The notes beneath the pieces are model-generated. The model saw only the letters and a list, made by a program, of their open reading frames with translations, had not been told where the DNA came from and made no database searches. The translations under genes and the position numbers were made by a program. From the IMG/VR virus record IMGVR_UViG_3300043418_000226: 64,000 bases of DNA; one strand, written 5' to 3'. Every line of letters starts with the position of its first letter. Positions within the stretch are counted from its first letter, which is position 1. This DNA comes from a virus. Lineage: Duplodnaviria; Heunggongvirae; Uroviricota; Caudoviricetes. This document shows positions 2,647 through 38,268 of the stretch, one piece after another.

Positions 2647-3489
2647 ATGTTACTTAAATTAGGATCACAAGGGGAAGACGTAAAAAAACTACAAGTTAAA
2701 TTAGGTGTTGACCCAATTGGTAATTTTGGACCAAAAACGGAAAGTGCAGTTAAAAAATGGCAATTGGATAATGGATTAACTGCCGATGGAATAGTTGGAG
2801 ATGGCACTTGGAGTAAATTGTTTAGTGAGAGTACGGTATCTGCACCGAGAGTTATTACAGAACCCGCACCGGTTTCTACTGTGGGTGGTCTTAAATTAGA
2901 AAAACTAAGAGGTCACATTCCGGATTCCGTTATAGCACAAATTCCAGATACTGCTTCTAAATTCCAAATAAACACACCATTAAGATTGGCACATTTCTTA
3001 GCCCAATGTGGACACGAATCGGGAGGTTTTAGGGCAACCCAAGAAAATTTAAATTATTCAGCAAAAGGGTTGAATGGGATTTTTAAGAAATACTTCCCAA
3101 CTGAATCTGCAGCGACTCCATATGCGAGACAACCTGAGAAAATTGCGTCTAAAGTTTATGCGAATAGAATGGGAAATGGTGCCGAGTCCACAAAAGAAGG
3201 GTATAAATTCAGAGGCCGAGGATATATTCAATTAACCGGAAAAGATAACTATACATTATTCGGTAAATCAATAAATGAAGACATATGTTCGAATCCTGAT
3301 AAAGTTGCCGTTAATTATGCATTATTATCCGCGGCTTGGTTCTTCAATAAAAATGGATTACATAAAATTGCAGATGAGGGGTCGAGTGATGTTGTTGTTA
3401 CAAAAATAACAAAACGTGTAAATGGCGGTACAATTGGGTTACCGGATAGAATAAAACACTTTAAAGAGTATTTTGCATTATTATCATAA
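2647..3489 (+). CDS. endolysin: N-terminal peptidoglycan-binding domain plus GH19 chitinase-like lysozyme domain
   Basis: PG_binding_1-like repeats (LQVKLGV..DGxFGPKT, LTADGIVGDGTW) followed by LAHFLAQCGHESGGF / GRGYIQLTG motifs typical of family 19 phage lysins. Confidence 0.8.
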   Translation: MLLKLGSQGEDVKKLQVKLGVDPIGNFGPKTESAVKKWQLDNGLTADGIVGDGTWSKLFSESTVSAPRVITEPAPVSTVGGLKLEKLRGHIPDSVIAQIPDTASKFQINTPLRLAHFLAQCGHESGGFRATQENLNYSAKGLNGIFKKYFPTESAATPYARQPEKIASKVYANRMGNGAESTKEGYKFRGRGYIQLTGKDNYTLFGKSINEDICSNPDKVAVNYALLSAAWFFNKNGLHKIADEGSSDVVVTKITKRVNGGTIGLPDRIKHFKEYFALLS

Positions 3490-5254: not shown

Positions 5255-5824
5255 ATGTCACAGGAACCACTACTGAAGATAGGTTATTATTCAATATACG
5301 AGATTAGAACCCCTAAAGGTAAAAAATATATGGTGGATAGTGGTAAAACTATTTTCCTTGAAAGATTTAAAAAGTATATAATAAATCCATATCGAGACAC
5401 TAAGGAGTTCATGTCTTTGGATAAGGCTAAAGAATATGTTAAAACAAAACTTTCTAAACGTAAAAAAGATAAAGAGAAGAAATTAAGTAAAATACCGAAG
5501 TCTTTATATCTTGTATTAATAAAGGAGGAGTCGACCGGTATCACTATAGTTAAAGTCGGCATCACCGCTAAAAGATTTATAATGAGACGTTTCAGTAAGG
5601 CATATGGTTATGAAGGATATGTGGTGGAAACAATATTGAGGAGAATTGAAACTCCACATGCTGAGAAATTTGAGAGTGATATTAAATCGATATTAAATAA
5701 AAAAAGGTCCGTAAAAAAATACAGACCTGTTTTAAAATCATTTTCAGGATATTCTGAATGTTTTGATTATTCGTGTTTGGAGGAGATAGTTACTGTTTTT
5801 GACCAAATATCATCCAAAGGTTAA
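5255..5824 (+). CDS. hypothetical protein, possibly T5orf172/GIY-YIG-related domain
   Basis: 189-aa ORF; KIGYYSIYEI and VKVGITAKRF segments weakly resemble the T5orf172 fold; weak call. Confidence 0.4.
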   Translation: MSQEPLLKIGYYSIYEIRTPKGKKYMVDSGKTIFLERFKKYIINPYRDTKEFMSLDKAKEYVKTKLSKRKKDKEKKLSKIPKSLYLVLIKEESTGITIVKVGITAKRFIMRRFSKAYGYEGYVVETILRRIETPHAEKFESDIKSILNKKRSVKKYRPVLKSFSGYSECFDYSCLEEIVTVFDQISSKG

Positions 5825-6213
5825 CTACAAGATGGTCCCCATCCGAATACATCCATCAACTTACCCCATAAGTCACGTCCCATGTAACCAAGTTCGATTA
5901 ATTTTTTTGCCGATTTACAACCAATCATACCATCGGCATCCAAACCATTATTTTGTTGGAAAATTGCCAACGCCGATTTTGATTTATCACCCCATGCACC
6001 GTCTGCACCAATCATGATGATGGGGGCCTTTGGATTTAATGTAAAGTCAGAACCGTTCCACGTTCCTCTTATGTTTTTCTTTTTAAAATAGTCATTAAGT
6101 GCAATTTGCACGTAATGCACATCTTCAGGTGAATCGGTGTCACCATATTGTTCATTAATTTGTTTATCAATGATTTTTTTAATTTGACTTTCTGTAAAAA
6201 TGTATTTTTTCAT
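5821..6213 (-). CDS. peptidoglycan-binding domain protein with N-terminal leader MKKYIFTESQIKKIIDKQINEQ
   Basis: C-terminal DGAWGDKSKSALAIFQQNNGLDADGMIGCKSAKKL matches the PG_binding_1 pattern; leader motif at the N-terminus. Confidence 0.65.
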   Translation of the reverse strand: MKKYIFTESQIKKIIDKQINEQYGDTDSPEDVHYVQIALNDYFKKKNIRGTWNGSDFTLNPKAPIIMIGADGAWGDKSKSALAIFQQNNGLDADGMIGCKSAKKLIELGYMGRDLWGKLMDVFGWGPSCS

Positions 6214-6224: not shown

Positions 6225-6911
6225 TTAGATTTCTTGAATGAAGTTTGAAATGTACCCCGACATTCTTTCCGACCTCATGTTAAATGTGTTTATTTCTTCT
6301 TTTGTAAGGTTTGTCGGATGTAAATAATCAAGCCCAATTGAACCAATTAAAGAATCCGTTGACATATCGAAAATACCTTTAGAAACCGCAGAAACAGTAC
6401 CAACCGATTCAAGGGCCGCTTTTAAACCAAATGTCGAAATTTCGGGATTTGAAATATCGGATATGTAAATTGTGTTACCTATCATTTGTTGTTCAATTGA
6501 ACGACTAAAAAGTGAAACAGGAAGATTATTAAATGTCATACCAATCGATGAAACTCCAAGTCTTGAAACTTCATGCATAACTGAGAATTTTTGAATTGAT
6601 TTATTCGTATGTAGGAAGTGACCTCCGTTATGTATAATTGTTATCCACGCTCTATCTGCGTTAAATTTTTCTCTAATATATTCTAACTCTTCCGTAATAA
6701 TTGCTGACTGTTCTAATTCCTTTTTAACCGGATCGATGACGACCGGTTCCGAATGGTTACCTAATTTTGACTTTACATATTCAACACCCGCAGGTCCTAA
6801 TAAGGCCGTAATTAAAGTAACTATAACTGTTCCGAGTAATTCTATTGTGTGTTGTTCCATAGTATAGTTTATAAATACCTTACCGTTAAATAAAGTAATA
6901 AAAAATATCAC
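6225..6911 (-). CDS. hypothetical protein (228 aa)
   Basis: complete ORF; N-terminal hydrophobic segment. Confidence 0.6.
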   Translation of the reverse strand: MIFFITLFNGKVFINYTMEQHTIELLGTVIVTLITALLGPAGVEYVKSKLGNHSEPVVIDPVKKELEQSAIITEELEYIREKFNADRAWITIIHNGGHFLHTNKSIQKFSVMHEVSRLGVSSIGMTFNNLPVSLFSRSIEQQMIGNTIYISDISNPEISTFGLKAALESVGTVSAVSKGIFDMSTDSLIGSIGLDYLHPTNLTKEEINTFNMRSERMSGYISNFIQEI

Positions 6912-7065
6912 ATCTATACAGTCAAAAACGTAAATAATGTCAGATTTTAAGATTTAAGTTTAAAACATAACGAAAATTATGTGTGATTTTTTTCTAATCT
7001 ATTTTTATTTGTCGACAATTTGTGTTATACTTTCTGAAACAATAAATTTTTTAAACAAAAAAAAC

Positions 7066-9612
7066 ATGAAAAAAACAAGTATTATGACAATTGTGTTAAT
7101 GTTACTATCGGTAGTATCATTTGCACAAATTAAGGGTCGAGTCATCGATCAAACAACTAAAGAAACCTTACCGGGTGTTAACATTATAACAACTAAAGGT
7201 GGGGTTACCACTGGTCTTGATGGTACGTTTACATTAAAAACCTCAAAATCGGGCGATAATTTAAAGGTTTCATATGTTGGATATAAAACAATCGATGTTA
7301 CCGCAAAGAATGACATTCTAATTGAAATGTTACCAACATCAACTGGTTTAAAAGAAGTCGTGGTCATGTCGTCATACGGTATTGATAGAAAGACCCCTGC
7401 AGCGATATCGTCAATTTCTACGAAGTTTGCAATTGAGAATTTAGGTTCACAAGAATTACCTGAATTATTAAAAATAACCCCGTCAGCGTTTATTACAAAA
7501 AGTGGTGGTGGATATGGGGATTCTCGTATTAACATTAGAGGATTTGATAATAAAAATATCGCGGTGTTAATCAATGGAGTACCTGTAAACGACATGGAAA
7601 GTGGTACAGTATACTTTTCAAATTGGGCAGGTATTGGAAATTCATTAAAACAAATGCAAGTTCAGAGAGGTCTTGGAGCATCTAAATTGGCTATCCAATC
7701 AGTTGGGGGTACGATGAATATTATTACTAAAACTACCGACATCGAAAAAGGTGGTTCAATTGAACAATCGACAACAGATTACGGACTCTCTAAAACAGTT
7801 TTATCGTTATCAACTGGTAACACTAAAAAGGGAGCATTAAGTTTTGTTGGTTCAGCAACTCAAGGTAATGGTTATATTGAGGGTACTAACACTAAAGCCT
7901 TTTCATATTTCTTATCATACTCTAAGGATTTCGGCACTAAACATAAAATTCAATTTACCGCAATTGGTGCACCTCAAGAACATGGACAAAGAACAACTCG
8001 TTTGACACCCGCAGAGTATACTCAATATGGTTTAAAATATAATAAAGATATCTACACAGTTAACGGTGAACAACATAACATTGCAACTAACTATTATCAT
8101 AAACCTATTTTTAGTTTAAATCATTATTGGACTATTTCACCTAAAACAACTTTAACCACATCAGCATATGGTTCGATTGGTCATGGTGGTGGTAGTGGTG
8201 CCATCGGTTCATATGCCACGGGTACTTTAAGAGATGCGGACGGACATTTAATTTTAGATAACCAAGTTACTATCAACGCAACATCGACTACCGGTTCAAA
8301 ATATGGTATCCGTAATTCAATTAATAATCACACATGGTACGGAGTATTATCGACATTAAATCATGATTTAACTGAAAATTTAAACTTAACTGTAGGTGTA
8401 GATGCTAGATCATATAAGGGAACTCACTTCCGTGAAATGAGAGATTTAATTGGTGGTTCATACTATAAAGATTTGTTTAACACACACGCAACTGTCGATG
8501 CAAATGCGAGTGATTATATTAACGTAACTAAAATTACACCTGCGGATAATAGAGTGGCTTATGACAATGATGGTTTAGTTAATTACGGAGGAACATTCGG
8601 ACAATTGGAATACTCTAAAGATAAATTATCTGCGTTTATTCAAGGAGCAATTTCTCAAACTCAATATCAAAGAGCTGATAGATACTACACAAATCAAGTA
8701 GAACATTTATCTGAAAAAGTTAACATCACAGGATATAACTACAAAGGAGGATTCAACTATAATATTGACAATAGTAATAACGTTTTTGTTAATGCCGGTC
8801 AATATAGTAGAGCACCTTATTTTTCGTTTATTTTTAATGGAGCGTCACCATCGTCGGCAACTGCGATTAATAGTGGTAATACCGTAAACACTAACATTAA
8901 AAACGAAGAAGCAACGGCATATGAAGTTGGTTATGGTTTTAGAAGTAGAGCGTTCCGTTTTAAGGTAAACGCATATTACACAGATTTTGCCAATCGTTCA
9001 TTAACGTCTCCATTATTAACAAATGCTGATGGTACTCAATACAGAGCATTAATAACCGGACAAGGAGCGTTACATAAAGGTATTGAATTAGAAGCGGCAT
9101 TTAAAGTTACTACTGATTTAGACATCAACGGATTTGCATCTTTTGGTGATTGGAAATGGAAAGGGAACGCTTCGGCAATTATCAGAGACGAAATTAAAAA
9201 TACAGACGTAAAAACATCGATATATTCCGACGGTTTATATGTTGGAGATCAACCTCAAACACAAGTAGGTGCGTACGTTAGATATCAAATTACAAAAGGA
9301 CTAGACGTTTCAGGAACGTATACGTTTAATGATAAATATTACGCATACTACGACCCCACATCTAGAACAACGTCAACTGTTACTGCACAACCATACAAAT
9401 TAGATGCGTTTGGTGTAACGGATGCGCGTGTTGGATATAAATTTAAAATTGGTAAGTATGAGACATATGCACAATATCAGGTTTATAATTTATTTAACGA
9501 AGATTATTGGGTAGAGGCTAACGATGCCGGTGGAACCGCAGTCGGAACATTAGGTTCAGGTTTCAAGGGTTGGGGTAGAAACTCTAACTTTAGTTTGAAG
9601 ATTAATTTCTAA
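7066..9612 (+). CDS. TonB-dependent outer-membrane receptor (CarboxypepD_reg + plug + beta-barrel; SusC/RagA-like)
   Basis: signal peptide MKKTSIMTIVLMLLSVVSFAQ; KGRVID..LPGVNI N-terminal domain; plug-like SSYGIDRKTPAAIS; many predicted beta strands; C-terminal aromatic residue (F); start moved to the ATG at 7066 in the tracked frame. Confidence 0.8.
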   Translation: MKKTSIMTIVLMLLSVVSFAQIKGRVIDQTTKETLPGVNIITTKGGVTTGLDGTFTLKTSKSGDNLKVSYVGYKTIDVTAKNDILIEMLPTSTGLKEVVVMSSYGIDRKTPAAISSISTKFAIENLGSQELPELLKITPSAFITKSGGGYGDSRINIRGFDNKNIAVLINGVPVNDMESGTVYFSNWAGIGNSLKQMQVQRGLGASKLAIQSVGGTMNIITKTTDIEKGGSIEQSTTDYGLSKTVLSLSTGNTKKGALSFVGSATQGNGYIEGTNTKAFSYFLSYSKDFGTKHKIQFTAIGAPQEHGQRTTRLTPAEYTQYGLKYNKDIYTVNGEQHNIATNYYHKPIFSLNHYWTISPKTTLTTSAYGSIGHGGGSGAIGSYATGTLRDADGHLILDNQVTINATSTTGSKYGIRNSINNHTWYGVLSTLNHDLTENLNLTVGVDARSYKGTHFREMRDLIGGSYYKDLFNTHATVDANASDYINVTKITPADNRVAYDNDGLVNYGGTFGQLEYSKDKLSAFIQGAISQTQYQRADRYYTNQVEHLSEKVNITGYNYKGGFNYNIDNSNNVFVNAGQYSRAPYFSFIFNGASPSSATAINSGNTVNTNIKNEEATAYEVGYGFRSRAFRFKVNAYYTDFANRSLTSPLLTNADGTQYRALITGQGALHKGIELEAAFKVTTDLDINGFASFGDWKWKGNASAIIRDEIKNTDVKTSIYSDGLYVGDQPQTQVGAYVRYQITKGLDVSGTYTFNDKYYAYYDPTSRTTSTVTAQPYKLDAFGVTDARVGYKFKIGKYETYAQYQVYNLFNEDYWVEANDAGGTAVGTLGSGFKGWGRNSNFSLKINF

Positions 9613-9629: not shown

Positions 9630-9663
9630 TAAAGGGAGATTTTACAGTCTCCCTTTTTTTTTG
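9630..9663 (+). terminator. intrinsic terminator
   Basis: GGGAGAT-TTTACAG-TCTCCC hairpin followed by a T9 run. Confidence 0.65.
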
Positions 9664-9674
9664 TATATTATAGT

Positions 9675-10229
9675 ATGAGTTTAATTATTAATTTCTTTGG
9701 TGGTCCAGGTATTGGTAAGTCCACACAATCGGCAGGTTTATTTACTAAAATGAAAAAGTCACACATGGATGTGGAATTAACGTATGAATTCCCAAAAATT
9801 GTTGCATGGGAAGAAAACTATTCAGCAATTAAGGACCAATTCTATATTACCGCGAATCAACATAGGAACATAAGTAGATTGTATAATAAGGTGAAATATA
9901 TAATTGTTGATTCTCCAATTATATTAGGTATGGTTTATAAAGATAGGTACAGTCTTGAACCAGAGTATCCTGCAATGTTTTATGATGAAACATTTGACAC
10001 TTTTGTTGTGACACTATTTAAGAAGTACGATAGTCTTAATATACTATTAACCAGAAACGATGCAACATATGATGAGAACGGTAGGTTCCAAAATTTACAA
10101 GAATCTAAAAAAATTGATGAAGACATTAAACAAAAACTTATCACTCACGATATACCTTTTGTTGAATTTAACGTTCATAATAATACTGCTTCGGATATAT
10201 TTAATTATATAAAACAAAACAATTTATGA
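9675..10229 (+). CDS. P-loop NTPase, putative nucleoside/nucleotide kinase
   Basis: Walker A GGPGIGKST at the N-terminus; 184 aa; TGA stop overlaps the next start (ATGA). Confidence 0.6.
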   Translation: MSLIINFFGGPGIGKSTQSAGLFTKMKKSHMDVELTYEFPKIVAWEENYSAIKDQFYITANQHRNISRLYNKVKYIIVDSPIILGMVYKDRYSLEPEYPAMFYDETFDTFVVTLFKKYDSLNILLTRNDATYDENGRFQNLQESKKIDEDIKQKLITHDIPFVEFNVHNNTASDIFNYIKQNNL

Positions 10230-10861
10230 AAAAATTATTAATGATGTCCGTTATTATACTAATTAGTATAACGTCAAACGGTCAAGATATCGTTGTCTTA
10301 AAACATACGAATTACACTTCAAATTATAGTAAAACAAAATTATATCCAGTGATGGTTGAGTGGTGGATTACTAAAGAAAAAATAGGTTGTCCCACTCCAA
10401 TGAAAAGGAAAGATAACTTTAAACCTGATGTGCAATTGAAGGAATTTACCGATATTGCATCAGATTACGTCAATAGTGGTTTAGATAGAGGACATATGAT
10501 GCCAGCTGCTGAGAATCTTTGTCAAACATCTGAAATTCAAGACGAATGTTTTTATTTTTCTAATATGGCAGCACAATACCATAGTTTAAATGCTGGTGAT
10601 TGGAAATCGTTAGAAACATTGGAAAGACAAATCTCAATGGAAAAAGATTCGGTACACGTATGGTGTGGTAATGTTGGTGAATTAAAAAAAGTTGGAAGAG
10701 TGTCGGTACCTAAAACATGTTGGAAGGTGGTATATATTTCTAAAACAAAAGAATTTATGTCATATATTTTCGAAAATACTCCTGACAAACCGACAGGATT
10801 AAATTCACATAAAGTTGAATTAATTGATATTGAAAAATTAACAGGATTAAAATTTAAATAA
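10226..10861 (+). CDS. secreted DNA/RNA non-specific endonuclease (Serratia NucA/ββα-Me family)
   Basis: signal peptide; DRGHMMPAAE matches the DRGH catalytic motif of Endonuclease_NS. Confidence 0.75.
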   Translation: MKKLLMMSVIILISITSNGQDIVVLKHTNYTSNYSKTKLYPVMVEWWITKEKIGCPTPMKRKDNFKPDVQLKEFTDIASDYVNSGLDRGHMMPAAENLCQTSEIQDECFYFSNMAAQYHSLNAGDWKSLETLERQISMEKDSVHVWCGNVGELKKVGRVSVPKTCWKVVYISKTKEFMSYIFENTPDKPTGLNSHKVELIDIEKLTGLKFK

Positions 10862-12584: not shown

Positions 12585-13628
12585 TTACTTTTGAAACCTA
12601 TTCAATGAATTTTCAGATATGAAATTATAATTAACCTTACCGATAAATTCAGGTAGGGTTTTTTTATTGGTATAACTCATTGCCGATTTAAGATAATGGG
12701 TAAAATTCTCAACCCAACCTTCTAATGTGTATTCTACTTGGTGTCTTCTAACAACTCCCTCAGATGTGGTTAATTCTTCTTTTCCCCATGACTTTTGAAC
12801 TTCTTTGGTACTCATACCTCTAAAGTTTTTATACAACGGTATATCGACTTTAAATGATTCTTTAGCTACGTCTGAATATTGGTTGATGATTTCACCGTTT
12901 TCTTTGGTTGTTTGACCAGCACTTTCTAATGCTTTGTTCAAAATTGAACCTAACATAACGTAATCCGCACCCAAAGCTAATGCTTTGATAACATCCGAAT
13001 ATTTTTTAAATCCACCATCGGCAACTATTTTAGTATCAAACCTTCCAACTTTATTACACTCCTCAATTAAAGAACCCATGGGATAACCAATACCGGTATT
13101 TTGTGTTGTTAAACAACCACCACCATTTCCGATTCCGATTCTAACGTAGTCTACATTTATACTACAAAAAAGTTCAAACGTTTCTGGATTGGCAACGTTA
13201 CCTACCATTAAAACTAATCGTTCCCCATAAATTCGTTTTGCCTCTTTCGAGGCATCATATAGTTCACCCATATGTCCATTGGCCACATCAATTAATGCGA
13301 ACATTTGTTCATTTTCAGATATTTTAGGTCTCGATTCAATGAATATTTTTTTAAAATCAATTAAACTATAGGACAGGAATAAATTGGTATCGACGTAATC
13401 ATAATCGGGATTTTTTATCCTTGGTAAGATGGGTGTTATCCCCACCTTATTAAAATGAATAAAGTTATTTTCATTTATAACGGTATCCATTGGTGCGGTC
13501 ATCAACGGTAATTTTTCACCAATATAATAAGGATTAATCTCACTTCTTGAACTGATATTAGTAATTATTTCAGGTTGAATAAGGATATCATCGAAGTCGA
13601 ACAGATTTTTTGGGTTTCTTTTAGTCAT
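12585..13628 (-). CDS. GMP reductase / IMP dehydrogenase family enzyme
   Basis: GIGNGGGCLTTQNTGIGYPMGS resembles the GIGPGSICTT active-site loop; IDVANGH and VGNVANPE barrel motifs. Confidence 0.75.
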   Translation of the reverse strand: MTKRNPKNLFDFDDILIQPEIITNISSRSEINPYYIGEKLPLMTAPMDTVINENNFIHFNKVGITPILPRIKNPDYDYVDTNLFLSYSLIDFKKIFIESRPKISENEQMFALIDVANGHMGELYDASKEAKRIYGERLVLMVGNVANPETFELFCSINVDYVRIGIGNGGGCLTTQNTGIGYPMGSLIEECNKVGRFDTKIVADGGFKKYSDVIKALALGADYVMLGSILNKALESAGQTTKENGEIINQYSDVAKESFKVDIPLYKNFRGMSTKEVQKSWGKEELTTSEGVVRRHQVEYTLEGWVENFTHYLKSAMSYTNKKTLPEFIGKVNYNFISENSLNRFQK

Positions 13629-14390: not shown

Positions 14391-14503
14391 TTTTTAATTT
14401 AATAATATTTTTGGTAAAGATACGATGTTTTTTTAATTAAAAAAATAAATTGTTGAAAATGTCACTAAAAATAACTATATTGTACCATATAATTAATATA
14501 AAA

Positions 14504-15754
14504 ATGGGTAATAAGAAAATTTTCGTACAAATCGCGTCCTATAGAGATCCGCAATTAATTCCAACAATAAAAGATTGTATTAAAAATGCAAAATATCCTG
14601 AGAATTTGGTTTTCTCAATTGCATGGCAACATTCGGAAGAAGATATTTGGGATAATCTTGATGAATTTAAAAACGATGAACGTTTTAGAATTGTGGACAT
14701 TAACTATAAAGACTCTAAAGGGGCATGTTGGGCAAGAAATCAATTACAACAACAATATAAAGACGAAGAATATACACTTCAATTAGATTCCCATCATCGT
14801 TTTATTGAAAATTGGGATGAGGAATGTATTCAAATGTATAGTGGGTTACAAGAAAAGGGACATAAAAAACCACTATTAACGGGTTATATGTCTTCATTTG
14901 ATCCTGAAAATGATCCGGCAGGTAGAACGTTACAACCATGGAAAATGAACTTCGATAGATTCATTCCTGAAGGTGCAATATTCTTCTTACCCGCAACTAT
15001 TGATGACTACCAAAAAAGAACTGAACCAATTCCCGCAAGATTTTATTCGGCACATTTCTGTTTCACATCTGGACAATTTACCGTTGAGGTTCCACATGAC
15101 CCCGAATATTATTTCCATGGGGAAGAGATTTCAATTGCGGTTAGAGCATATACCCATGGTTATGATTTATTTCATCCACATAAAGTAATTGTTTGGCACG
15201 AATATACCAGAAAGGGTAGAAAAAAACAATGGGATGACGACGATAAATGGGTCACTAAGAACGTTGAGTGTCACAAACGTAATAGAAAATTATTTGAAAT
15301 GGATGGTGAAGTGAAAGACATCGACTTTGGTGTTTACGATTTTGGAAACGAAAGGACATTGGAGGATTATGAGAGATATGCAGGGATTTCATTTAAAAAG
15401 AGGGCCGTTCAAAAATATACAATAGATAACAATTTAGCACCAAATCCACCATTGTATGGTGACGAATTAGATGGGTCATTTTTAAAGATTTTCAAACATT
15501 GTATTGACATTGGGTACGATAAAATACCTGAGAATGATTATGAGTTTTTTGTGGTGGCGTTTCACGATGAGAATGACGAAACGTTATATAGACTTGATGC
15601 GGACGTAAATGAGGTGAATAGAATTAAAAATGACCCCGATGGTTACGGTAAAATTTGGAGAGAATTTACCGTGGAAAAAACACCTAAGTATTGGGTTGTT
15701 TGGCCATTTAGTACATCTAAGGGATGGGGAGATAGAATAACAGGTAATTTGTAA
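14504..15754 (+). CDS. glycosyltransferase, GlcNAc-transferase-like (GT-A fold)
   Basis: IFVQIASYRDPQLIPTIKDC N-terminal signature typical of the GlcNAc-transferase family; start moved to the internal MGNKK at 14504. Confidence 0.6.
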   Translation: MGNKKIFVQIASYRDPQLIPTIKDCIKNAKYPENLVFSIAWQHSEEDIWDNLDEFKNDERFRIVDINYKDSKGACWARNQLQQQYKDEEYTLQLDSHHRFIENWDEECIQMYSGLQEKGHKKPLLTGYMSSFDPENDPAGRTLQPWKMNFDRFIPEGAIFFLPATIDDYQKRTEPIPARFYSAHFCFTSGQFTVEVPHDPEYYFHGEEISIAVRAYTHGYDLFHPHKVIVWHEYTRKGRKKQWDDDDKWVTKNVECHKRNRKLFEMDGEVKDIDFGVYDFGNERTLEDYERYAGISFKKRAVQKYTIDNNLAPNPPLYGDELDGSFLKIFKHCIDIGYDKIPENDYEFFVVAFHDENDETLYRLDADVNEVNRIKNDPDGYGKIWREFTVEKTPKYWVVWPFSTSKGWGDRITGNL

Positions 15755-15772
15755 ATAAAGTATATATTATTA

Positions 15773-16540
15773 ATGAAAATATGTTTTGCAACAGAAGTAA
15801 CATATCCAAATTATGTTAATAGAATAAAAACGACTTCATTGGGGTCGTTTTTAAGTAAGGGGTTAGATAAAGCAGGTGTAAGTTATTACATATCAACTAA
15901 CCTACCAAATAATTTAAGTGAGTATAAGGATAACGATTCAATTAAGGTTTTTGATATTGAGGATTTAAGAAAAGACAAACCGATGTCAATCAAACACGAA
16001 TTATTACCTGAAGACCCGACTGGAATTTATCCATCGAAGTATCCGTGGAATTTAAGGAGATTTATTATTGAGAAGGCAGCAATGGACGGATTCGACTTTA
16101 TAATTTACGTAGATGCAGATAATACAATTAATTTAAATGTTAATCTTGAGGACATATTAACCTCATTTAAGTCTAATTACGAACCAAATACCGTACAAAC
16201 CAATTCGGCCGTTTTTAAGTACAGTAACGGAACTCCTCATGATGTTTTTCAATATCACGATGAATATAAAAAACTTTTTAATTTTAAATTTGATGTTGAT
16301 GACTATGACACGTTGGATGGACCTGTTCAAGTATTCATAGGTGAAACTAATGAGTCAATTTTAAAGTTTACTTCTAATTGGCATAAGTTTGCCGAATTTG
16401 GATACGAGAAAGAATTTGGATTTGGTTACGATAACAATAAACATGGTAATTTATCATTTGTGATACCTTTATCGGGGTTTAAATTAAAATGGAGGTCATA
16501 CCCATTTTTCCAAGACCATAGACCTGAAGATAGATATTAA
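15773..16540 (+). CDS. hypothetical protein in glycosylation cluster
   Basis: 255-aa ORF co-oriented and tightly spaced with the glycosyltransferase and methyltransferase genes. Confidence 0.55.
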   Translation: MKICFATEVTYPNYVNRIKTTSLGSFLSKGLDKAGVSYYISTNLPNNLSEYKDNDSIKVFDIEDLRKDKPMSIKHELLPEDPTGIYPSKYPWNLRRFIIEKAAMDGFDFIIYVDADNTINLNVNLEDILTSFKSNYEPNTVQTNSAVFKYSNGTPHDVFQYHDEYKKLFNFKFDVDDYDTLDGPVQVFIGETNESILKFTSNWHKFAEFGYEKEFGFGYDNNKHGNLSFVIPLSGFKLKWRSYPFFQDHRPEDRY

Positions 16541-16542
16541 TT

Positions 16543-17100
16543 ATGGAAAATAATATTGAACATTACTTTATAAAACATCTAACGGATAAGTTTGAAAGTA
16601 AGTATCATGAAGTTTACAATACCGTACTAGGACCGATAAGAAATGATGAAATAACATTGTTAGAAATTGGATTAGGAACGATAACTCATGGGCCTTCAAA
16701 TATGATTAGTTGGAAAGAACAATATATCGATTATAAACCAGGAGCATCATTAAGAGCATTTAAAGACTATTTTCAAAAAGGATTAATTTATGGTATGGAC
16801 ATTCAACATGATTGTATGTTTAATGAAGATAGGATTGACACCTTTCTATGTGATTCGAGAGAAAAAAAACAATGTGACGATAAGTTAAACGAAATGAAAT
16901 TTGACGTTATAATCGACGATGGTGATCACTCATCTGAAGGTCAGATAAAAACGTTTCTAAATTTATTTGGGAGAGTTAAAAGTGGTGGTTATTATTTTAT
17001 TGAAGATGTGGCATTTTTAGAGGACATTAAGTCATATTTTGAATCCACAACATACGATTATGAATTCCATAACAGATTATTAGTAATAAAAAAAATATAA
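16543..17100 (+). CDS. class I SAM-dependent methyltransferase
   Basis: motif I LLEIGLGT and DVIIDDGDH. Confidence 0.65.
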   Translation: MENNIEHYFIKHLTDKFESKYHEVYNTVLGPIRNDEITLLEIGLGTITHGPSNMISWKEQYIDYKPGASLRAFKDYFQKGLIYGMDIQHDCMFNEDRIDTFLCDSREKKQCDDKLNEMKFDVIIDDGDHSSEGQIKTFLNLFGRVKSGGYYFIEDVAFLEDIKSYFESTTYDYEFHNRLLVIKKI

Positions 17101-17750
17101 TGATATCATTAAAAAAAATACTACGCCACATAAATGATAAGGAGGGATTTACCTTTGTTTCGGTAGGTGCAAATGATGGAATATTTGTTGACGAGGTTTT
17201 CCAATCTAATTTATTAAATGTTAATTGGAAATGTTTTTTTATTGAACCAGTCAAAGAAACATTTGATAGATTGATAAAAAATTACGATGAACATTACCCG
17301 AATAATTGTTTTGTTTTTGAGAACTATGCGATACATACTGAAGACGGAGAAGGTTATTTAGTTACTAATAAAATTGATGATTCAAGGGGAATGTGTTCAT
17401 TTTTTAGAGAAGAAAGTGCTGAAACTGAAAAATTCAAAGTCACAAAAAAAACATTTAAAAGTTTTGTTTTAAAAAATAATATCGATAAAATTGATTTCTT
17501 AAAAATTGATTGTGAAGGTATGGATAATGAAATAATATTACAATGTTTTGAATGTGGAATAATGCCGGATTTAATTTTATTTGAGGATATTTCATTAGAC
17601 ATTAGTGAATCGAAAATTAGGGACATACATTATTTAATTAAAGAATTAAATAAAAGAGACGATTACGTGTTAATGGAGGACATTCCTGAATATCAATACG
17701 AAGAATCGAATAAATTAATCATTAAAAAAGAACTCTTAAAATATGTTTAG
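17100..17750 (+). CDS. FkbM-family methyltransferase
   Basis: FVSVGANDGIF matches the FkbM VGANxG signature; ends in TAG, overlapping the next start (ATGTTTAG). Confidence 0.7.
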   Translation: MISLKKILRHINDKEGFTFVSVGANDGIFVDEVFQSNLLNVNWKCFFIEPVKETFDRLIKNYDEHYPNNCFVFENYAIHTEDGEGYLVTNKIDDSRGMCSFFREESAETEKFKVTKKTFKSFVLKNNIDKIDFLKIDCEGMDNEIILQCFECGIMPDLILFEDISLDISESKIRDIHYLIKELNKRDDYVLMEDIPEYQYEESNKLIIKKELLKYV

Positions 17751-19260
17751 TATACTTGGTAATGTTTTTGCCGACAAGGGATTTTATATAAATCTACCGT
17801 CATCTACGGATAGGAAAGAAAATATTGAGAAGTTAATTAGTCAATTTAATATCGAAGGCTTAAGTAGGTTCGATGCGTTAACTGACGAAATGATTCAATA
17901 TTCATGCACCAAAAGTCATTTAGGTATTTTTGAAGAATCGTCTAAGAATGGTTTAGAAGTTATTTTTGTGGCCGAAGATGATATCGATATAAATGAAATA
18001 TGTTACGCACCATATAGTAAAGAAGACATAACGTTTAAAGATGTAATATCAAAAATTCACGAAGATTTAAAAAACGTGGAGTGGGACGTGTTATTATTTG
18101 GTTGTAATCCAAAAACTCATTTAATACCTGTAACAGATAACTTAGCAATTAATCATCAAAGTACAGGTGCGTGGGGTTATATTATTAAAAAAAGAGCGTA
18201 CGAATATATTCTACAAAATTTAAACTATAAAAAAGATTTAATTGCAATTGATGATTTTTTACCGTTATTAAATAGTAAAGGATTTGTTACGTTATGTACG
18301 ATACCGTTAGTTATAAATCATGCGATAGGGTTCGAATCTACATTACAACCTAGAGGTCCGGTTAACTACGATGCTTGGATTATTGGGAATTACCATAAAT
18401 TTCTTTATGACCATTATCAGGATAATTTTACCGAAAGGAGAGTTGAGAAAGAAGTTACGGTTGTAATTGCCGGTCATTTCGTTGAAAACTACATGTTTCA
18501 TTTAAATTACTTACTTCATAGTTTACCTCACGATTTGAAAAAATGTAAATTTTTAATTCATTACGATGAAAACCCTGAGTTTGACACAAACACTGAGAAA
18601 TTTAAACTAAATGCATATTTTAGAGATGTTAGAAGTGATTTGAACGTTACCATATCATATGGATTCGGTGGGTTAATTTCAACCATCGAAACAACAATGA
18701 ACGAGGTTAAAACTCCATACTTTATATTTTTAGAACATGATTGGGTTTTTTTAGAAAAGGATAATATCAAATTTATAAATTTGATTGAGGCATTTAACAA
18801 TCATAATTTTATAAATGCGGTGTGGTTCGCTAAGGACGATAATACGATGAGAGGGTTTGAAATTGCTCGTGACATCGATGACGTAACTACCCCTTTTGAA
18901 AGGGAAATAAGGGTAAATGAAGTGGATTTAGTGACAACTTGTAGATGGTCAAATAATCCGGTAATGTTTAGGTTAACAAAAATGAAAGAGTGGTTCTATG
19001 AAATCATCAAAAATGAACATGTTGGAAAAACACATCAAGGTCAATTTAATGTTGAGGAGACAATAATACCTTATTACAGAACAGAAATAAGTGAAAATAA
19101 ATGGGAATCCATTAGAGATAATTGGGGGACCTTTCTATATGGTGATTTAAATGAGGGACCCTATGTCGGTCACACTGATGCATCAAGAAGATATCAAGGT
19201 ATTGCGAAATCAATGCCAGAAATAAATGGAGAAAATTACATCAAAAACAATCCAATATAA
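17743..19260 (+). CDS. multidomain glycosyltransferase (GT25-like N-terminus)
   Basis: N-terminal YINLPSSTDRKENIEKL resembles the GT25 LPS-glycosyltransferase start; 505 aa. Confidence 0.6.
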   Translation: MFSILGNVFADKGFYINLPSSTDRKENIEKLISQFNIEGLSRFDALTDEMIQYSCTKSHLGIFEESSKNGLEVIFVAEDDIDINEICYAPYSKEDITFKDVISKIHEDLKNVEWDVLLFGCNPKTHLIPVTDNLAINHQSTGAWGYIIKKRAYEYILQNLNYKKDLIAIDDFLPLLNSKGFVTLCTIPLVINHAIGFESTLQPRGPVNYDAWIIGNYHKFLYDHYQDNFTERRVEKEVTVVIAGHFVENYMFHLNYLLHSLPHDLKKCKFLIHYDENPEFDTNTEKFKLNAYFRDVRSDLNVTISYGFGGLISTIETTMNEVKTPYFIFLEHDWVFLEKDNIKFINLIEAFNNHNFINAVWFAKDDNTMRGFEIARDIDDVTTPFEREIRVNEVDLVTTCRWSNNPVMFRLTKMKEWFYEIIKNEHVGKTHQGQFNVEETIIPYYRTEISENKWESIRDNWGTFLYGDLNEGPYVGHTDASRRYQGIAKSMPEINGENYIKNNPI

Positions 19261-19261
19261 A

Positions 19262-21613
19262 ATGAAAAAATTATTAAATAACATATTAACCTTCGATAAT
19301 AAAAAAATAGATCCATCAATTATTAATAATGACCAAGTTAAAAATTTGGTTTACTATCTTTTAAATGTTATTGAAAATAAAATAGACGGTGATGTTGTGG
19401 AATTCGGATGTTACGTGGGTGAGTCAAGCAAATACCTAACTAAGACATTATTGGAGACTGAAAGCACAAAAAAACTTTACGTATACGATTCGTTCGAAGG
19501 TTTACCCCCACTTTCTAAATGGGAAGAAAACACAGGTTGGAAAGCGGGAACCTTGAAAAGTACTGAGGAGATATTGATTTCCAATTTTACCAATAACAAT
19601 TTACCATCACCAATTATACATAAAGATTGGTTCAAAGATGTACCGGAAGATAAGATACCAGAAAAAATATCATTTGCGTTTTTGGATGGAGATTTTTACG
19701 ATTCAATTTATGATAGTTTGATGAAAGTTTTTGACAAAGTAACCGATGGTGGGTATATATGTTTCCACGATTATCAGAGAGACGATTTACCGGGTGTCAG
19801 GGCAGCAATTGAAGATGTGTTTAAAGAAAAGAATGTAGAATATACCGTTGAGGAAGTTTGTGGTCAATTAGGTGTTTATCGAAAAAACATGTTACTTGAA
19901 AATAAGTTACCTCAAAGACCTAAAGTTGAGAGAAAGTACGGAGGTACAACGATTGTAACGGGTATATGGGATATCAAAAGACATGAGTTAAGTGTTGGGT
20001 GGAATAGAAGTTTTAATCACTATTTGGACCACTTATCTAAGTTAATGAGGGTAGATGATAATATGATTATTTTCATCGAAGAAAAATATAGAAGTTTTGT
20101 TGAGGAACGTAGGAGTGACGATAACACTCTAATCGTTGTAAGGGAATTGGATTGGTTTAAACAAAATAGTGGAATGTTCGATAAAATTCAAAATATTCGT
20201 AACAATCCTGAATGGTTTAATCAATCAGGGTGGTTGGTCGATAGTACACAAGCAAAATTAGAATTGTATAATCCTATTGTTATGTCAAAAGTATTTTTAC
20301 TTAATGACGCGTCAATTATGGATCCGTTTAATTCTTCACATTTAGTTTGGGTCGATGGGGCAATTACTAATACCGTACATGAAGGTTATTTTTGGCACGA
20401 TAAGGTAATTCAAAACATTGAAAAATATTTCAATAAGTTTAGTTTTGTGTGTTTCCCATACGACGGTAAAGTCGAAATCCATGGATTTAGATATGAGGAT
20501 ATTTGTCACTATTCTGAAGGTGAAGTTAATAAAGTTGCTAGAGGTGGAATATTCGGTGGACCGAAACATCTTTTTAGTAAAATAAACGAAATTTATTATG
20601 AACTATTAAACACTACATTATCGAACGGTTTAATGGGTACAGAAGAGAGTATTTTTACTATTATGACATACAAATACCCTGAACTAATTCAATATTTTGA
20701 GATTGAGGGTACGGGATTATTAGGTACGTTCTTTGAGAACTTAAAGAATAACACACTCCAACCTAAACAAGAGAAATCTGAAACAGTAAGAGTAAATCCA
20801 CATAATAGAGATAACGTTGCACTTTATGTTTTAACTTACAATTCACCGAAACAATTTGAAAAACTTTGTATGTCATTTGAGATATACGATAAAAATTTCT
20901 TAGATAAGCCATTAAAATTTTTAATTAACAATTCATTAGATAAGGGTACCGATAATGAATACGGTAACTTATGTGAAAAATATGGATTTACTCAAATTAA
21001 AAAAGATAATATAGGTATATGTGGAGGTAGACAATTCGTTGCGGAACATTCAGAAGAAAATGGGTTCGATTATCATTTCTTTTTTGAAGACGATATGTTT
21101 TTTTACTTGGGAGAAGAACAATTCTGTAAATCAGGTTTTATGAGAAAAATACCTAACTTTTATAATAAAATGTTAGATATTGCTTGGATTGAAAATTTTG
21201 ATTTTCTTAAATGGAATTATAGTGAATTTTTTGGTACCAATTCAAAACAATGGGTTTGGCATAACGTACCGGCAGATGTTAGGGCCCGTTTATTTCCCGA
21301 TAAACCCGTTAAAATCACTAGTGACCATAATTACGCACCTAATATGAATTTTAAAAATATAAAAACGTTAAATGGGTTACCATATGCAACGGGTGAAATC
21401 TATTACTGTAATTGGCCTCAAGTTGTTTCTAAAGAAGGTAATAAAAAAATGTTTTTAGATGTTAAATGGAACCATCCATACGAACAAACATGGATGTCGT
21501 ATATTTTCCAAGAAACTTTAAAAGGAAATATAATACCGGGGTTATTATTGGCATCACCAACCGAACATAATCGTTTCGATTATTATCCTGGTCACGAAAG
21601 AAGAGAAAATTAA
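19262..21613 (+). CDS. fusion of TylF/MycF-like O-methyltransferase and glycosyltransferase-like domains
   Basis: GDVVEFGCYVGESSKYL, LYVYDSFEGLP and FLDGDFYDSIY resemble macrocin-O-methyltransferase; about 500 aa of further domains; start moved to MKKLLNN at 19262. Confidence 0.65.
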   Translation: MKKLLNNILTFDNKKIDPSIINNDQVKNLVYYLLNVIENKIDGDVVEFGCYVGESSKYLTKTLLETESTKKLYVYDSFEGLPPLSKWEENTGWKAGTLKSTEEILISNFTNNNLPSPIIHKDWFKDVPEDKIPEKISFAFLDGDFYDSIYDSLMKVFDKVTDGGYICFHDYQRDDLPGVRAAIEDVFKEKNVEYTVEEVCGQLGVYRKNMLLENKLPQRPKVERKYGGTTIVTGIWDIKRHELSVGWNRSFNHYLDHLSKLMRVDDNMIIFIEEKYRSFVEERRSDDNTLIVVRELDWFKQNSGMFDKIQNIRNNPEWFNQSGWLVDSTQAKLELYNPIVMSKVFLLNDASIMDPFNSSHLVWVDGAITNTVHEGYFWHDKVIQNIEKYFNKFSFVCFPYDGKVEIHGFRYEDICHYSEGEVNKVARGGIFGGPKHLFSKINEIYYELLNTTLSNGLMGTEESIFTIMTYKYPELIQYFEIEGTGLLGTFFENLKNNTLQPKQEKSETVRVNPHNRDNVALYVLTYNSPKQFEKLCMSFEIYDKNFLDKPLKFLINNSLDKGTDNEYGNLCEKYGFTQIKKDNIGICGGRQFVAEHSEENGFDYHFFFEDDMFFYLGEEQFCKSGFMRKIPNFYNKMLDIAWIENFDFLKWNYSEFFGTNSKQWVWHNVPADVRARLFPDKPVKITSDHNYAPNMNFKNIKTLNGLPYATGEIYYCNWPQVVSKEGNKKMFLDVKWNHPYEQTWMSYIFQETLKGNIIPGLLLASPTEHNRFDYYPGHERREN

Positions 21614-27270: not shown

Positions 27271-27679
27271 TGGTGGAGATGGAGGGATTCGAACCCTCGT
27301 GTTGTTCGCAACACCATAAATGGACTACACGTTTATTCAATTAATTCACAACTGACAAATATTTGGTTCCTATTTTTACATCGTTACCAATAACTGTGTC
27401 GGGTTCACTTGTGTTGGAGTAGACCCCTGAACGAGACTCCTAATACATCTTCGGGTGGTATTACACCTTGAGAACTTCTGTTGCTAGGTTATATGTTCAT
27501 CGACCCCATGTAGGTTCGTCTTAGACTACTGCTACGTTAGAAGTTGCAAGTAAACCTGCAATTTCCATGTTGTTGTAAACGTTGCCGTTTGAAATTTACC
27601 ATCGTGTATTAAAGTCATAGATGATGTTTGACTACGTGCCCACTTACAATATAAACGCCAGTCAATTCCAGTCATCCCC
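27271..27679 (-). ncRNA. ssrA: tmRNA (transfer-messenger RNA)
   Basis: 5' GGGGAUGACUGGAAUUGACUGG and 3' GGUUCGAAUCCCUCCAUCUCCACCA tRNA-like ends with a G3:U70 wobble and encoded CCA; about 409 nt; sits between a minus-strand promoter (27696-27703) and a terminator; candidate tag frame GNVYNNMEIAGLLATSNVAVV-TAA. Confidence 0.8.
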
Positions 27680-28033: not shown

Positions 28034-28714
28034 TTAAATGGACAATGGTAACTGTTTGTCATAGAGTGCCTCAAAGAAAAGTTTGTTCTTTTCCCACTTC
28101 TTATTTGTTGCACCAACTGACTTATGTGTTAAATTAATCTTGGTAGTTAATCCAATTTTTACCCCCTCTAAAAAGTTCTCAACACAGAATGAAATATCAT
28201 AAAAGTGAAACCCATTAAATTCTTCGTTGAATTCTTTCTTTATACGTCCTTTATGAACCATGAAGAATAATCCATCCACTATTACCACATCTTTAAGAAC
28301 ATCGTTGTAAACACTCTTAGAATAATGATTAACGTGTCTTTTACCTTCGTGTATGTGTCCAACAACTCCAAACATATTTTCTCGACTTGTCCACCAACAA
28401 CCACTGGTTAATTTATCGGTACCCGCAATTCCAATGATACCGTAATCGGGATGTTTATCAAATAACTTAACGATTTTAGGTGTTATATTTGACGTTTCTA
28501 AAATCAAATCATCATGCATGAACACAACAATGTCATTTTGTGATTCTTTTAATCCTTTATTGTAGATTTGTGTAAGTGATTCCAATCCGTCATTTTCATA
28601 AATTAGAATTTGAGTTTTTGGGTGTGAAAACATCTTACTTACGTGTTTTAAATAATCATCACAAATTGTTCGTGTTGATATAACCACAGTTACCGGTGTG
28701 TTAGTCTTGGACAT
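28034..28714 (-). CDS. glycosyltransferase family 2-like
   Basis: VTVVISTRT and DIVVFMHDDL GT-A motifs. Confidence 0.6.
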   Translation of the reverse strand: MSKTNTPVTVVISTRTICDDYLKHVSKMFSHPKTQILIYENDGLESLTQIYNKGLKESQNDIVVFMHDDLILETSNITPKIVKLFDKHPDYGIIGIAGTDKLTSGCWWTSRENMFGVVGHIHEGKRHVNHYSKSVYNDVLKDVVIVDGLFFMVHKGRIKKEFNEEFNGFHFYDISFCVENFLEGVKIGLTTKINLTHKSVGATNKKWEKNKLFFEALYDKQLPLSI

Positions 28715-36882: not shown

Positions 36883-37413
36883 TCACCATTTCTTATTTTT
36901 AATAAAATTATTTCTATATTCATCTATCGCACCGATTACTTCATTTTCATATCTTGAATGAACATATTGGTGGTGTGTTGGGCATAACGGTATTAAATTT
37001 TTTGGCTCGTTATTATTATGATTTTTATCATAATGATGAACGGTAACTATTTTATTTTCACCGCAAATGACACATTCTTTGTTATGATAGTTGAAACAAG
37101 TGCTTCTATAACTGTCATCTTTCCAATTGGGATTTGCCGTCCCACTTCTAAAATAAGTGTTAGAACAAGAATATGAACAAGTTGTTTTTTCTTCTTTATT
37201 ACCTACTTTTGTTTCAAATTGATTACCACAAATAGGACATTTTTTTAATACTTTCTCATATTTTGATGGTTTTGATTTAAGATGGTCAATGTTTATTTTA
37301 TTTTCAATTACGAAGTTTTTAAATTTTAATTGGGTTCTACCATTATAATACCCGTATATTTTTTTAATTGCTTCTGACTTTGTTTTTGATGTTTTTATTA
37401 TTTCTCTTTCCAT
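36883..37413 (-). CDS. HNH homing endonuclease
   Basis: Cys-rich zinc-finger region and HHYDKNHNNNEPKNLIPLCPTHHQYVH HNH motif. Confidence 0.75.
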   Translation of the reverse strand: MEREIIKTSKTKSEAIKKIYGYYNGRTQLKFKNFVIENKINIDHLKSKPSKYEKVLKKCPICGNQFETKVGNKEEKTTCSYSCSNTYFRSGTANPNWKDDSYRSTCFNYHNKECVICGENKIVTVHHYDKNHNNNEPKNLIPLCPTHHQYVHSRYENEVIGAIDEYRNNFIKNKKW

Positions 37414-37476
37414 AATAATAAATACATTAAAATGTCGTAAAAGTAAAGTTTGACCAAAACTTTTATTTACGATTTG

Positions 37477-37548
37477 TCAGGGTAGTAAGAGTTGAACTTA
37501 CCGCTTCCTGCGTCCAAGGCAGGCTTCTCACCCCGAGAATATACCCTG
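37477..37548 (-). tRNA. tRNA-Pro(TGG): tRNA-Pro (UGG)
   Basis: acceptor CAGGGTA/TACCCTG, stem CCTGC/GCAGG, loop CT-TGG-AC. Confidence 0.8.
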
Positions 37549-37556
37549 TTTTTATG

Positions 37557-37630: not shown

Positions 37631-37676
37631 AAATACACTTCCTCTTATACGCGAGTATAGTGTGAACTAAGCTTCG

Positions 37677-38253: not shown

Positions 38254-38268
38254 TTTACAAAACGTTAG

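Follow-up and report, generated by a model that had tools for sequence, protein, structure and literature searches.

The window analyzed here is a 64,000-nucleotide stretch of tailed-virus DNA (Caudoviricetes; IMG/VR record IMGVR_UViG_3300043418_000226), and our subject is the gene at positions 7066..9612 on its plus strand, which codes for a TonB-dependent transporter (TBDT) of the outer membrane with 848 amino acids plus the stop codon. We conclude with high confidence that the phage itself encodes this TBDT and that the gene is genuine and functional. Its carriers are freshwater jumbo phages of approximately 190 to 330 kb that infect low-GC Bacteroidota, and carriage of the gene in these phages is long-standing. 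Nutrient import would be the probable role of the protein, a judgement held with somewhat better than even confidence; that confidence takes in a narrower and much more tentative proposal, the scavenging of nucleic acid. An earlier note, made from the sequence alone, had listed nutrient uptake during infection among several options. It is the best supported of them: the TonB box, plug, and C-terminal beta-signal are kept, the ratio of nonsynonymous to synonymous divergence (dN/dS, or omega) is approximately 0.1, and the plug is the most constrained part of the protein.

The gene encodes a complete TonB-dependent transporter

The program-called open reading frame (ORF) spans 6979-9612 on the plus strand. 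Alignment with approximately 120 homologues placed the true start at the ATG at position 7066 (MKKTSIM...) and ruled out a start at 6979, and an antisense ORF at 7149-7595 was treated as spurious. The earlier note had described a full-length TBDT with signal peptide, CarboxypepD_reg domain, plug, and beta-barrel with a final Phe, a description that was upheld by Pfam, by an AlphaFold2 model, and by Foldseek. The ORF behind its length of 849 amino acids also exists, but that figure counts the stop codon.

A Sec signal peptide, recognized by direct reading of the sequence, occupies residues 1 to 21 (7066..7128, plus strand; MKKTSIMTIVLMLLSVVSFAQ, followed by IKG), with predicted cleavage after ...SFAQ. 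The junction, ..SF[AG]Q followed by I.G[KR], is kept across the aligned homologues, and the 848-residue protein has no lipobox cysteine. The mature protein begins with a CarboxypepD_reg-like N-terminal extension domain (residues 22 to 92; 7129..7341), which was matched by PF13715 (CarbopepD_reg_2; residues 22 to 100, E value of 1.7e-14) and forms a beta-sandwich in the AlphaFold2 model. The sole match in a sequence search of the PDB with the TBDT was 6ytc, the isolated N-terminal domain of a TonB-dependent receptor. The heptapeptide LKEVVVM at residues 95 to 101 (7348..7368) we take to be a TonB box from its position and its resemblance to the "(D/K)EVVV" motif of Bacteroidota. Conservation is consistent with this assignment: the motif L(K/D)EVxV at residues 95 to 100 is nearly invariant across 86 clade members and 34 outgroup sequences, with E97 present in 84 of the 86 clade members, V98 in 85, and V100 in 75. 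Through this motif the protein would bind TonB. An invariant DRKTP then marks the start of the plug, R108, K109, T110, and P111 being found in all 86 clade members.

The plug domain covers residues 108 to 227 (7387..7746) and was matched by PF07715 over residues 108 to 216 (E value of 1.4e-12). It is followed by a 22-strand beta-barrel from residue 228 to residue 848 (7747..9609), matched by PF00593 (TonB_dep_Rec_b-barrel) over residues 316 to 809 (E value of 9e-23). The PF13715, PF07715, and PF00593 matches all lie above gathering scores, and the last two are those that the earlier note had proposed to seek. DSSP applied to the AlphaFold2 model assigned to the barrel 22 strands, 11 long loops, and 10 short turns. 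The protein ends in ...SLKINF, and the terminal Phe is kept in nearly all homologues aligned. In the same alignment, every phage copy retains the signal-peptide junction, L(K/D)EVxV, DRKTP, and the C-terminal Phe. PHROG 5687, whose function is not annotated, matches residues 96 to 848.

The AlphaFold2 model was built from a 57-sequence alignment and comprises the N-terminal domain, plug, and barrel (mean pLDDT of 81, pTM of 0.80). Comparison of the model with solved TBDTs by Foldseek gave E values of 1e-38 to 1e-30 at 12 to 16% sequence identity, with TM-scores normalized to the target of 0.69 to 0.83; the best matches were PqqU, Fiu, FhuA, FecA, and YncD. These proteins share the plug and 22-strand barrel with the window protein but are without its CarboxypepD_reg-like domain, and no substrate is transferable from them.

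The TBDT gene is embedded in jumbo-phage genomes

Genomic context was read over the 64-kb window, which belongs to a contig of approximately 319 kb, and over flanks of up to 10 kb at the other loci. Phage genes lie on both sides of the TBDT gene. Upstream, Pfam identified a GH19 plus PG_binding endolysin (2647-3489), a T5orf172 protein (5255-5824), and a small PG_binding protein (5821-6213), and these are followed by a divergent gene of unknown function (6225-6911) that has a homologue at locus L041. Downstream of the TBDT gene and of the two genes linked to it, which are treated below, lies a GMP-reductase/IMPDH-family gene (12585-13628; Pfam). The window also encodes the large terminase TerL, recognized by both Terminase_6N and PHROG 2, as well as a PA14 protein and several glycosyl- and methyltransferases. 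Its GC content is approximately 33%, that of the TBDT gene is 35%, and that of the bacteria with orthologues is 34 to 35%.

The identical TBDT protein is encoded on contigs of 318,764 and 319,332 bp, in the former approximately 18 kb from one end. An orthologue of 84% identity (L003) is carried on a 320,270-bp contig with a coverage of 118x, in the same order as in the window: endolysin ... T5orf172, PG_binding, TBDT, AAA_28, nuclease. A more distant orthologue of 70% identity (L026) likewise has the gene order of the window. The proteins flanking it are 24 to 78% identical to those of the window; therefore, divergence of the TBDT tracks divergence of the phage backbone. Altogether, TBDT homologues of 66 to 84% identity were found in at least 15 other phage-like contexts, of which L003, L026, and L041 are syntenic with the window. 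Besides L003 and L026, the phage-like contexts are L006, L015-L025, L029, L034, L038, L040, L041, and L043, and seven of them are IMG/VR contigs. Locus L006 lies on a 329-kb contig, and of the 18 contigs that carry the same protein, 9 exceed 200 kb.

Neighbors of the TBDT copies in these contexts include a ClpB-like ATPase, GroEL, Mom, an aminoacyl-tRNA synthetase, tRNA arrays, transfer-messenger RNA (tmRNA), endolysin, and many small ORFs. At L023 the GroEL gene stands directly 3' of the TBDT gene, and at L006 a tmRNA (8862-9260) lies just upstream of it. A megablast search with positions 1 to 25000 of the window against 50,697 phage records returned no match, and the phage thus has no close cultured relative among them. 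These observations agree with the earlier note in placing the TBDT gene within a phage-like region, on contigs of approximately 319 to 320 kb and in an order shared by relatives. Its account of the flanks, as comprising a secreted nuclease, phage-type small ORFs, and the endolysin, was correct by Pfam.

The phage TBDT is under strong purifying selection

Pairwise dN/dS by the Nei-Gojobori method (NG86) was 0.08 to 0.17 among the phage copies and 0.13 to 0.21 among the bacterial orthologues described below; because many pairs approach saturation at synonymous positions, the omega values are approximate. Purifying selection on the phage TBDT is as strong as that on its cellular orthologues. By region, omega was 0.01 to 0.07 in the plug, approximately 0 to 0.14 in the TonB-box segment, 0.05 to 0.11 in the strands, and 0.08 to 0.24 in the extracellular loops, the last range giving no sign of diversifying selection in those loops. 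Identity between phage copies was highest in the plug (87%), followed by the strands (77%), the loops (69%), and the periplasmic turns (55%); among the loops, L3, L8, and L11 reached 75 to 85%. This pattern of constraint is that of a working transporter; it is not what a passenger in decay, or a decoy at the surface caught in an arms race, would show.

Bacterial orthologues nest within the phage radiation

Database searches recovered a tight TBDT clade of sequences 63 to 100% identical to the query, forming 77 clusters at 90% identity and separated by a gap from bacterial TBDTs at approximately 50% identity. One of the latter, the 49%-identical bacterial outgroup P0091, belongs to a housekeeping locus, where its neighbors are PGI and, in tandem, another TBDT. 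Within the tight clade, all contexts examined were phage-like save one conserved chromosomal locus, in which Aminotran_4 is followed by the TBDT gene and then by a convergent 3keto-disac_hyd gene. This locus was found in metagenome-assembled genomes (MAGs) of freshwater Bacteroidota with 34 to 35% GC (L008-L014, L033, L035, L036, and L042), one of which is labeled Sediminibacterium ginsengisoli. The bacterial orthologues are 67 to 70% identical to the query. Their neighbors (Aminotran_4, 3keto-disac_hyd/DUF1080, and GFO_IDH) give no clue to a substrate. At the loci examined, none of the bacterial-orthologue neighbor genes occurs beside a phage copy, and none of the phage neighbors occurs beside a bacterial one. 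That the orthologues hold a single conserved chromosomal locus under purifying selection bespeaks the value of the transporter to a cell.

The earlier note had suggested a phylogeny of the gene against host receptors. We examined a neighbor-joining tree rooted by nine outgroup sequences, in which support was assessed by 200 bootstraps with distance methods only, and found that the bacterial copies nest inside the phage radiation. The bacterial clade together with phage copies L006, L020, and L026 was recovered in 200 of 200 bootstraps; phage L022 joined this group, and phages L019, L023, and L025 branched below all others, with the same support in both cases. Monophyly of the phage copies was recovered in none of the 200. 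Character counts pointed in the same direction. At eight alignment columns the outgroup state is retained only in the basal phage copies L019, L023, and L025, six derived states are common to the bacteria and L006, L020, and L026, and no column favors a history in which the bacterial copies are ancestral and all phage copies derived. L026 is syntenic with the window though its TBDT falls in the bacteria-proximal subclade. Because of the nesting, and because of this synteny despite a bacteria-proximal TBDT, the simplest reading is long vertical inheritance in phages with one transfer from phage to bacterium; in-place replacement of phage TBDT alleles by host alleles is a further, less simple possibility. 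Synonymous divergence between phage and bacterial copies exceeds 1, and the transfer is therefore ancient. The chromosomal TBDT of this freshwater Bacteroidota genus is thus a candidate case of a transporter passing from phage to bacterium.

An exported nuclease is repeatedly linked to the TBDT gene

Two genes that follow the TBDT gene on the plus strand bear on its possible substrate. The first (9675..10229) encodes a P-loop nucleoside/nucleotide-kinase-like protein of 184 amino acids, matched by Pfam AAA_28 (E value of 1.6e-9) and by PHROG 2107, "thymidylate kinase" (E value of 7e-15). Its stop overlaps the start of the second gene (10226..10861), which encodes a 211-residue Endonuclease_NS, a non-specific DNA/RNA endonuclease (Pfam E value of 8.5e-35) with the DRGH active-site motif. 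The nuclease is predicted to be exported by a type I signal peptide (MKKLLMMSVIILISITSNGQ, with cleavage before D). All of the nucleases examined (window, L003, L026, L029, and L020) have kept a signal peptide as well as DRGH.

An Endonuclease_NS with a signal peptide is linked to the TBDT gene at 8 of the approximately 20 phage loci that have enough downstream sequence. It lies no more than 130 bp 3' of the TBDT gene at L020/L021/L039, L029/L030, L034, L038, and L040, and the kinase-like gene is interposed in the window, L003, and L026, in the two relatives at the same position. The nuclease-linked loci are spread over three or more TBDT subclades and differ in their upstream neighbors. We considered uptake of an NAD precursor, on the ground that AAA_28 has the NadR ribosylnicotinamide-kinase fold, and found it unsupported: neither PnuC nor NMNAT was found in the window. 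The idea is weakened further by the PHROGs assignment of the kinase to thymidylate kinases, and no informative PDB match was obtained for it.

The TBDT itself is not of the SusC/RagA type, to judge from two negative results: the NCBIfam scan gave no match to the SusC/RagA model TIGR04056, which the earlier note had named for checking, and no SusD-like gene lies beside the TBDT gene at any phage or bacterial locus examined. The CarboxypepD_reg-like extension (PF13715) is shared by SusC/RagA proteins and many non-SusC TBDTs of Bacteroidota. Below threshold, NCBIfam matched the protein to TIGR01786, TIGR01779, BtuB, and MxcH models (receptors for haem/transferrin, B12, and myxochelin), and the fold neighbors found by Foldseek are small-molecule importers. 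From the modeled fold, and from the missing SusD partner, one would expect the substrate to be small and not a glycan. Products of nucleic acid breakdown may be regarded as the most specific lead, given that an exported non-specific nuclease recurs beside the TBDT and that a nucleotide-kinase-like gene accompanies it in this phage.

Proposed role and alternative explanations

We infer the following course of events from the architecture of the protein. During infection the TBDT would be exported by Sec and cleaved after ..SFAQ, and the beta-barrel assembly machinery (BAM) of the host would insert it into the outer membrane by means of the C-terminal ...KINF signal. Host TonB-ExbBD would then energize it through the L(K/D)EVxV box behind the N-terminal domain. 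The transporter could in this way import a nutrient whose supply is limiting when so large a genome has to be replicated, so that the phage would re-equip the surface of its host for nutrient uptake while infection proceeds.

Several observations weigh against this proposal. The protein has no NCBIfam equivalog or subfamily match above cut-off, its identity to any solved TBDT is only 12 to 16%, and Rfam found no riboswitch upstream of any TBDT copy in the window or at the bacterial and phage loci, so that no ligand can be inferred from that quarter. No phage TonB or ExbBD was seen in the stretches examined, and these stretches are parts of much larger genomes. With regard to the nucleic acid lead in particular, approximately 12 of the 20 phage loci have no adjacent nuclease and none of the bacterial orthologue loci has one as a neighbor. 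Since adjacency is missing from so many phage loci, the link to nucleic acid may be nothing other than ancestral gene order.

The earlier note had also asked whether the gene is host DNA, either a host-derived island or a flank of host chromosome. An origin of this kind, whether as host chromosome beside a prophage, as a recently captured passenger without a role, or as an assembly chimera, is very hard to credit. Cellular homologues 67 to 68% identical to the protein do occur in bacterial MAGs, and a GC content of 35% resembles that of the phage (33%) as well as that of the bacteria (34 to 35%), but phage genes lie on either side both in the window and in the 10-kb flanks, and independent assemblies of 318.8, 319.3, and 320.3 kb share the order around the TBDT gene. 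Many related jumbo-phage contigs carry the gene, its divergence tracks that of the flanking phage genes, and bacterial and phage loci have no neighbor genes in common. A dN/dS of approximately 0.1 over a deep phage radiation excludes a decaying passenger, and synonymous divergence above 1 between phage and bacterial copies places any transfer in the distant past. On the strength of the window and of flanks of up to 10 kb, we therefore reject a host origin of the segment. It is improbable, if less so, that the phage TBDT acts on adsorption, by replacing, diluting, or mimicking a host TBDT that phages use as a receptor and so excluding superinfecting phages or sparing progeny from binding to debris. 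TBDTs are classic phage receptors, structures of FhuA with T5 pb5 and with Llp are among the fold matches, a candidate host lineage has an orthologue of 67 to 70% identity, and the gene sits among lysis-related genes. However, an additional receptor would leave the native one in place. Constraint on the protein is strongest in the TonB box and plug, for which a passive decoy would have no use, and the loops are not hypervariable (omega of 0.08 to 0.24; 69% identity). The exclusion factors known to target TBDTs, T5 Llp among them, are lipoproteins of small size and not whole transporters, whereas the window protein is a complete transporter of 848 residues. The exclusion or decoy option of the earlier note is unsupported though conceivable: the loops give no sign of diversifying selection, and a passive decoy would have no call for a conserved TonB box.

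Scavenging of DNA is not so much a rival of nutrient import as a specific form of it, a phage analogue of the ddb locus of Bacteroidales, and we regard it as possible but rather unlikely. Under this proposal the exported nuclease would cut nucleic acid of the environment or the periplasm into oligonucleotides, the TBDT would carry these over the outer membrane, and the kinases and the GMP-reductase-like enzyme would feed the phage nucleotide pool. The linkage of nuclease to TBDT in at least three subclades with differing upstream neighbors is consistent with such a module, as are the retention of signal peptide and DRGH in all nucleases examined and the presence of the GMP-reductase/IMPDH-family gene at 12585-13628; moreover, ddbABCDEF shows that Bacteroidota pair secreted nucleases with a TBDT for the use of exogenous DNA (PMC12478041). 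On the other hand, Pfam found no DdbD-like (DUF5689) lid protein among the neighbors, the nuclease is absent from the surroundings of the bacterial orthologues and of the 49%-identical outgroup locus, and adjacency fails at approximately 12 of the 20 phage loci. The nuclease, if periplasmic, might rather be directed at incoming foreign DNA. A bolder conjecture, which we would offer only tentatively, joins this module to the phylogeny: freshwater Bacteroidota jumbo phages would vertically keep a scavenging module of TBDT and nuclease (with the kinase in some) by which an infected cell would draw on nucleic acid from outside or from the periplasm to supply genomes of approximately 320 kb in phosphorus-poor lakes, and the phage lineage rather than the bacteria would also be the reservoir of the family and its donor to a Chitinophagaceae-like bacterial genus.

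Relation to known phage-borne transporters

The earlier note had stated that phages normally do not encode TonB receptors. The statement calls for some qualification: such genes are rare, but a marine megaphage and phages of ammonia oxidizers are on record as carrying them. The phage TBDT is thus a known but rare kind of gene, of which the family in the window is a separate acquisition. A "SusC" TBDT of the marine megaphage Mar_Mega_1, found also in the huge phage LR745206, was read as an auxiliary gene for carbohydrate uptake (Michniewski et al. 2021, PMC9723777). As here, a full-size TBDT of a very large phage was interpreted as serving uptake; the families differ, however, the annotation there is a single line, and the window protein is not SusC-type. 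In BFVD, a library of viral structures, the Mar_Mega_1 protein (A0A8D9FQQ5) was the sole match to the TBDT fold over the full length (E value of 1e-36, 13% identity), and LR745206 gave a partial tblastn match of approximately 30% identity over 42% of the length. At such identities these are independent acquisitions of different TBDT families. Matches in GenBank phages by tblastn were all partial or distant: 37% identity for two short human-faecal contigs, unannotated and entered as "Bacteriophage sp.", and approximately 30% for huge phages.

Six TBDTs have been described in phages of ammonia-oxidizing bacteria (bioRxiv 10.64898/2026.05.02.722434). They too are borne by phages or prophages, and they were read as genes for iron or haem uptake with a possible second role as receptors. 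They differ from the present case in that the hosts are Proteobacteria, the phages are largely temperate, and the proteins belong to siderophore/haem families; the window TBDT has no siderophore or haem equivalog above cut-off and carries a Bacteroidota-type N-terminal domain. Work on freshwater megaphages (PMC6802176), gut Jug phages (PMC12880540), and a Tenacibaculum phage (PMC10013915) makes no mention of phage TBDTs.

Among cellular systems, the ddbABCDEF locus of Bacteroides thetaiotaomicron serves the use of exogenous DNA by means of secreted nucleases and a TBDT (PMC12478041). The two loci are alike in belonging to Bacteroidota and in combining exported nuclease with TBDT, and one of the ddb nucleases likewise has a type I signal peptide and is presumed to be periplasmic. 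They differ in that the ddb system is cellular and has six genes, among them lipoprotein nucleases and the DdbD (DUF5689) lid protein, whereas the phage locus has at most the TBDT, one Endonuclease_NS, and the kinase-like gene. By analogy, the phage pair of TBDT and nuclease may be a minimal counterpart of ddb.

Cyanophages carry the nutrient acquisition genes pstS and phoA, and psbA has been exchanged between host and phage. The TBDT resembles these genes in being a host-type gene under purifying selection, with phage and host sequences intermingled in the tree. It is unlike them in encoding an outer-membrane barrel that needs BAM and TonB, in the phylum of its host, and in having no known regulation by starvation. 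A transporter barrel of the outer membrane is expensive to make and relies on the machinery of the host, and is for these reasons an unusual thing for a virus to carry. What is new here is the breadth of carriage across a jumbo-phage family, the evidence of selection, the nuclease linkage, and a bacterial gene nested within phage diversity. With these, the phage TBDT moves from a curiosity of annotation to a selected trait across an abundant family of lake jumbo phages, and infected Bacteroidota cells would be expected to have a nutrient uptake surface altered by the virus. If the nuclease link is functional, it would give viruses a way of recycling the dissolved DNA and phosphorus of lakes.

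Flanking regulatory sequences of the TBDT gene

The TBDT gene is preceded by a divergent AT-rich intergenic region and 5' leader (6912..7065, plus strand), which ends in ...AAATTTTTTAAACAAAAAAAAC immediately before the ATG. A similar TTTT(T)AAAC or A-rich leader stands ahead of phage and bacterial TBDT orthologues alike. At eight other phage loci an intrinsic-terminator hairpin lies just 5' of the TBDT gene, which suggests that the gene forms a transcription unit of its own. On the 3' side, a terminator-like hairpin with an 11-bp stem and subsequent T-run lies between the TBDT and kinase-like genes (9631-9656 or 9631-9666), identified by match to a consensus pattern only. The sequence TTTTTTAAAC was considered as a shared phage promoter and rejected; it is specific to the TBDT leader, and one of its three occurrences in the window precedes a gene. 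A sigma-70 scan gave no excess over shuffled sequence.

Other features of the window

Several RNA-related features lie elsewhere in the window. A tRNA array at 29579-41824 on the minus strand, with small ORFs interspersed, contains 26 tRNAs according to ARAGORN and two more according to Rfam. One of them, with a CTA anticodon (30846-30919; "Pyl" in ARAGORN), is a potential amber suppressor; stop codons in 71 predicted genes of the window were TAA in 61, TGA in 7, and TAG in 3. At the edge of the array, adjoining tRNA-Met (29579-29664), is a full-length GOLLD RNA (29671-30059, minus strand), matched by RF02032 over model positions 1 to 416 with 273 bits against a gathering score of 150. The window adds one more jumbo phage to those that house GOLLD, a large structured RNA whose function is unknown. 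A tmRNA at 27271-27679 (minus strand) encodes the tag peptide ATSNVAVV*, and one small ORF in the window matches SmpB (E value of 2.8e-43); the phage thus has a complete trans-translation pair. A T4-type RNA ligase is encoded at 52526-53566 (minus strand), and nearby small ORFs match cREC_REC (cyclic-phosphate processing receiver) and AAA_33 (polynucleotide-kinase-like). Judging by these matches, the three look like a set for repair of RNA or tRNA.

Genes for sugar modification are grouped at 14450-21613 (plus strand) and 28034-28714 (minus strand). They include a GlcNAc-type glycosyltransferase, an FkbM methyltransferase, GT25, GT2, an ORF resembling a dTDP-sugar epimerase, and a 795-residue fusion of a TylF O-methyltransferase with HtrL/YibB and a TAGT-like region, a content that suggests modification of DNA, virion, or host surface glycan. 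A 641-residue SPFH/Band-7 domain protein is encoded within the tRNA array (31029-32954, minus strand). Finally, a ClpB/Hsp104-like double-AAA+ chaperone of 670 residues is encoded at 54890-56902 (minus strand); its counterparts in related phages (L006, 4006-6018; L017; L024) are 59 to 61% identical and are located there near the TBDT and HSP20 genes.

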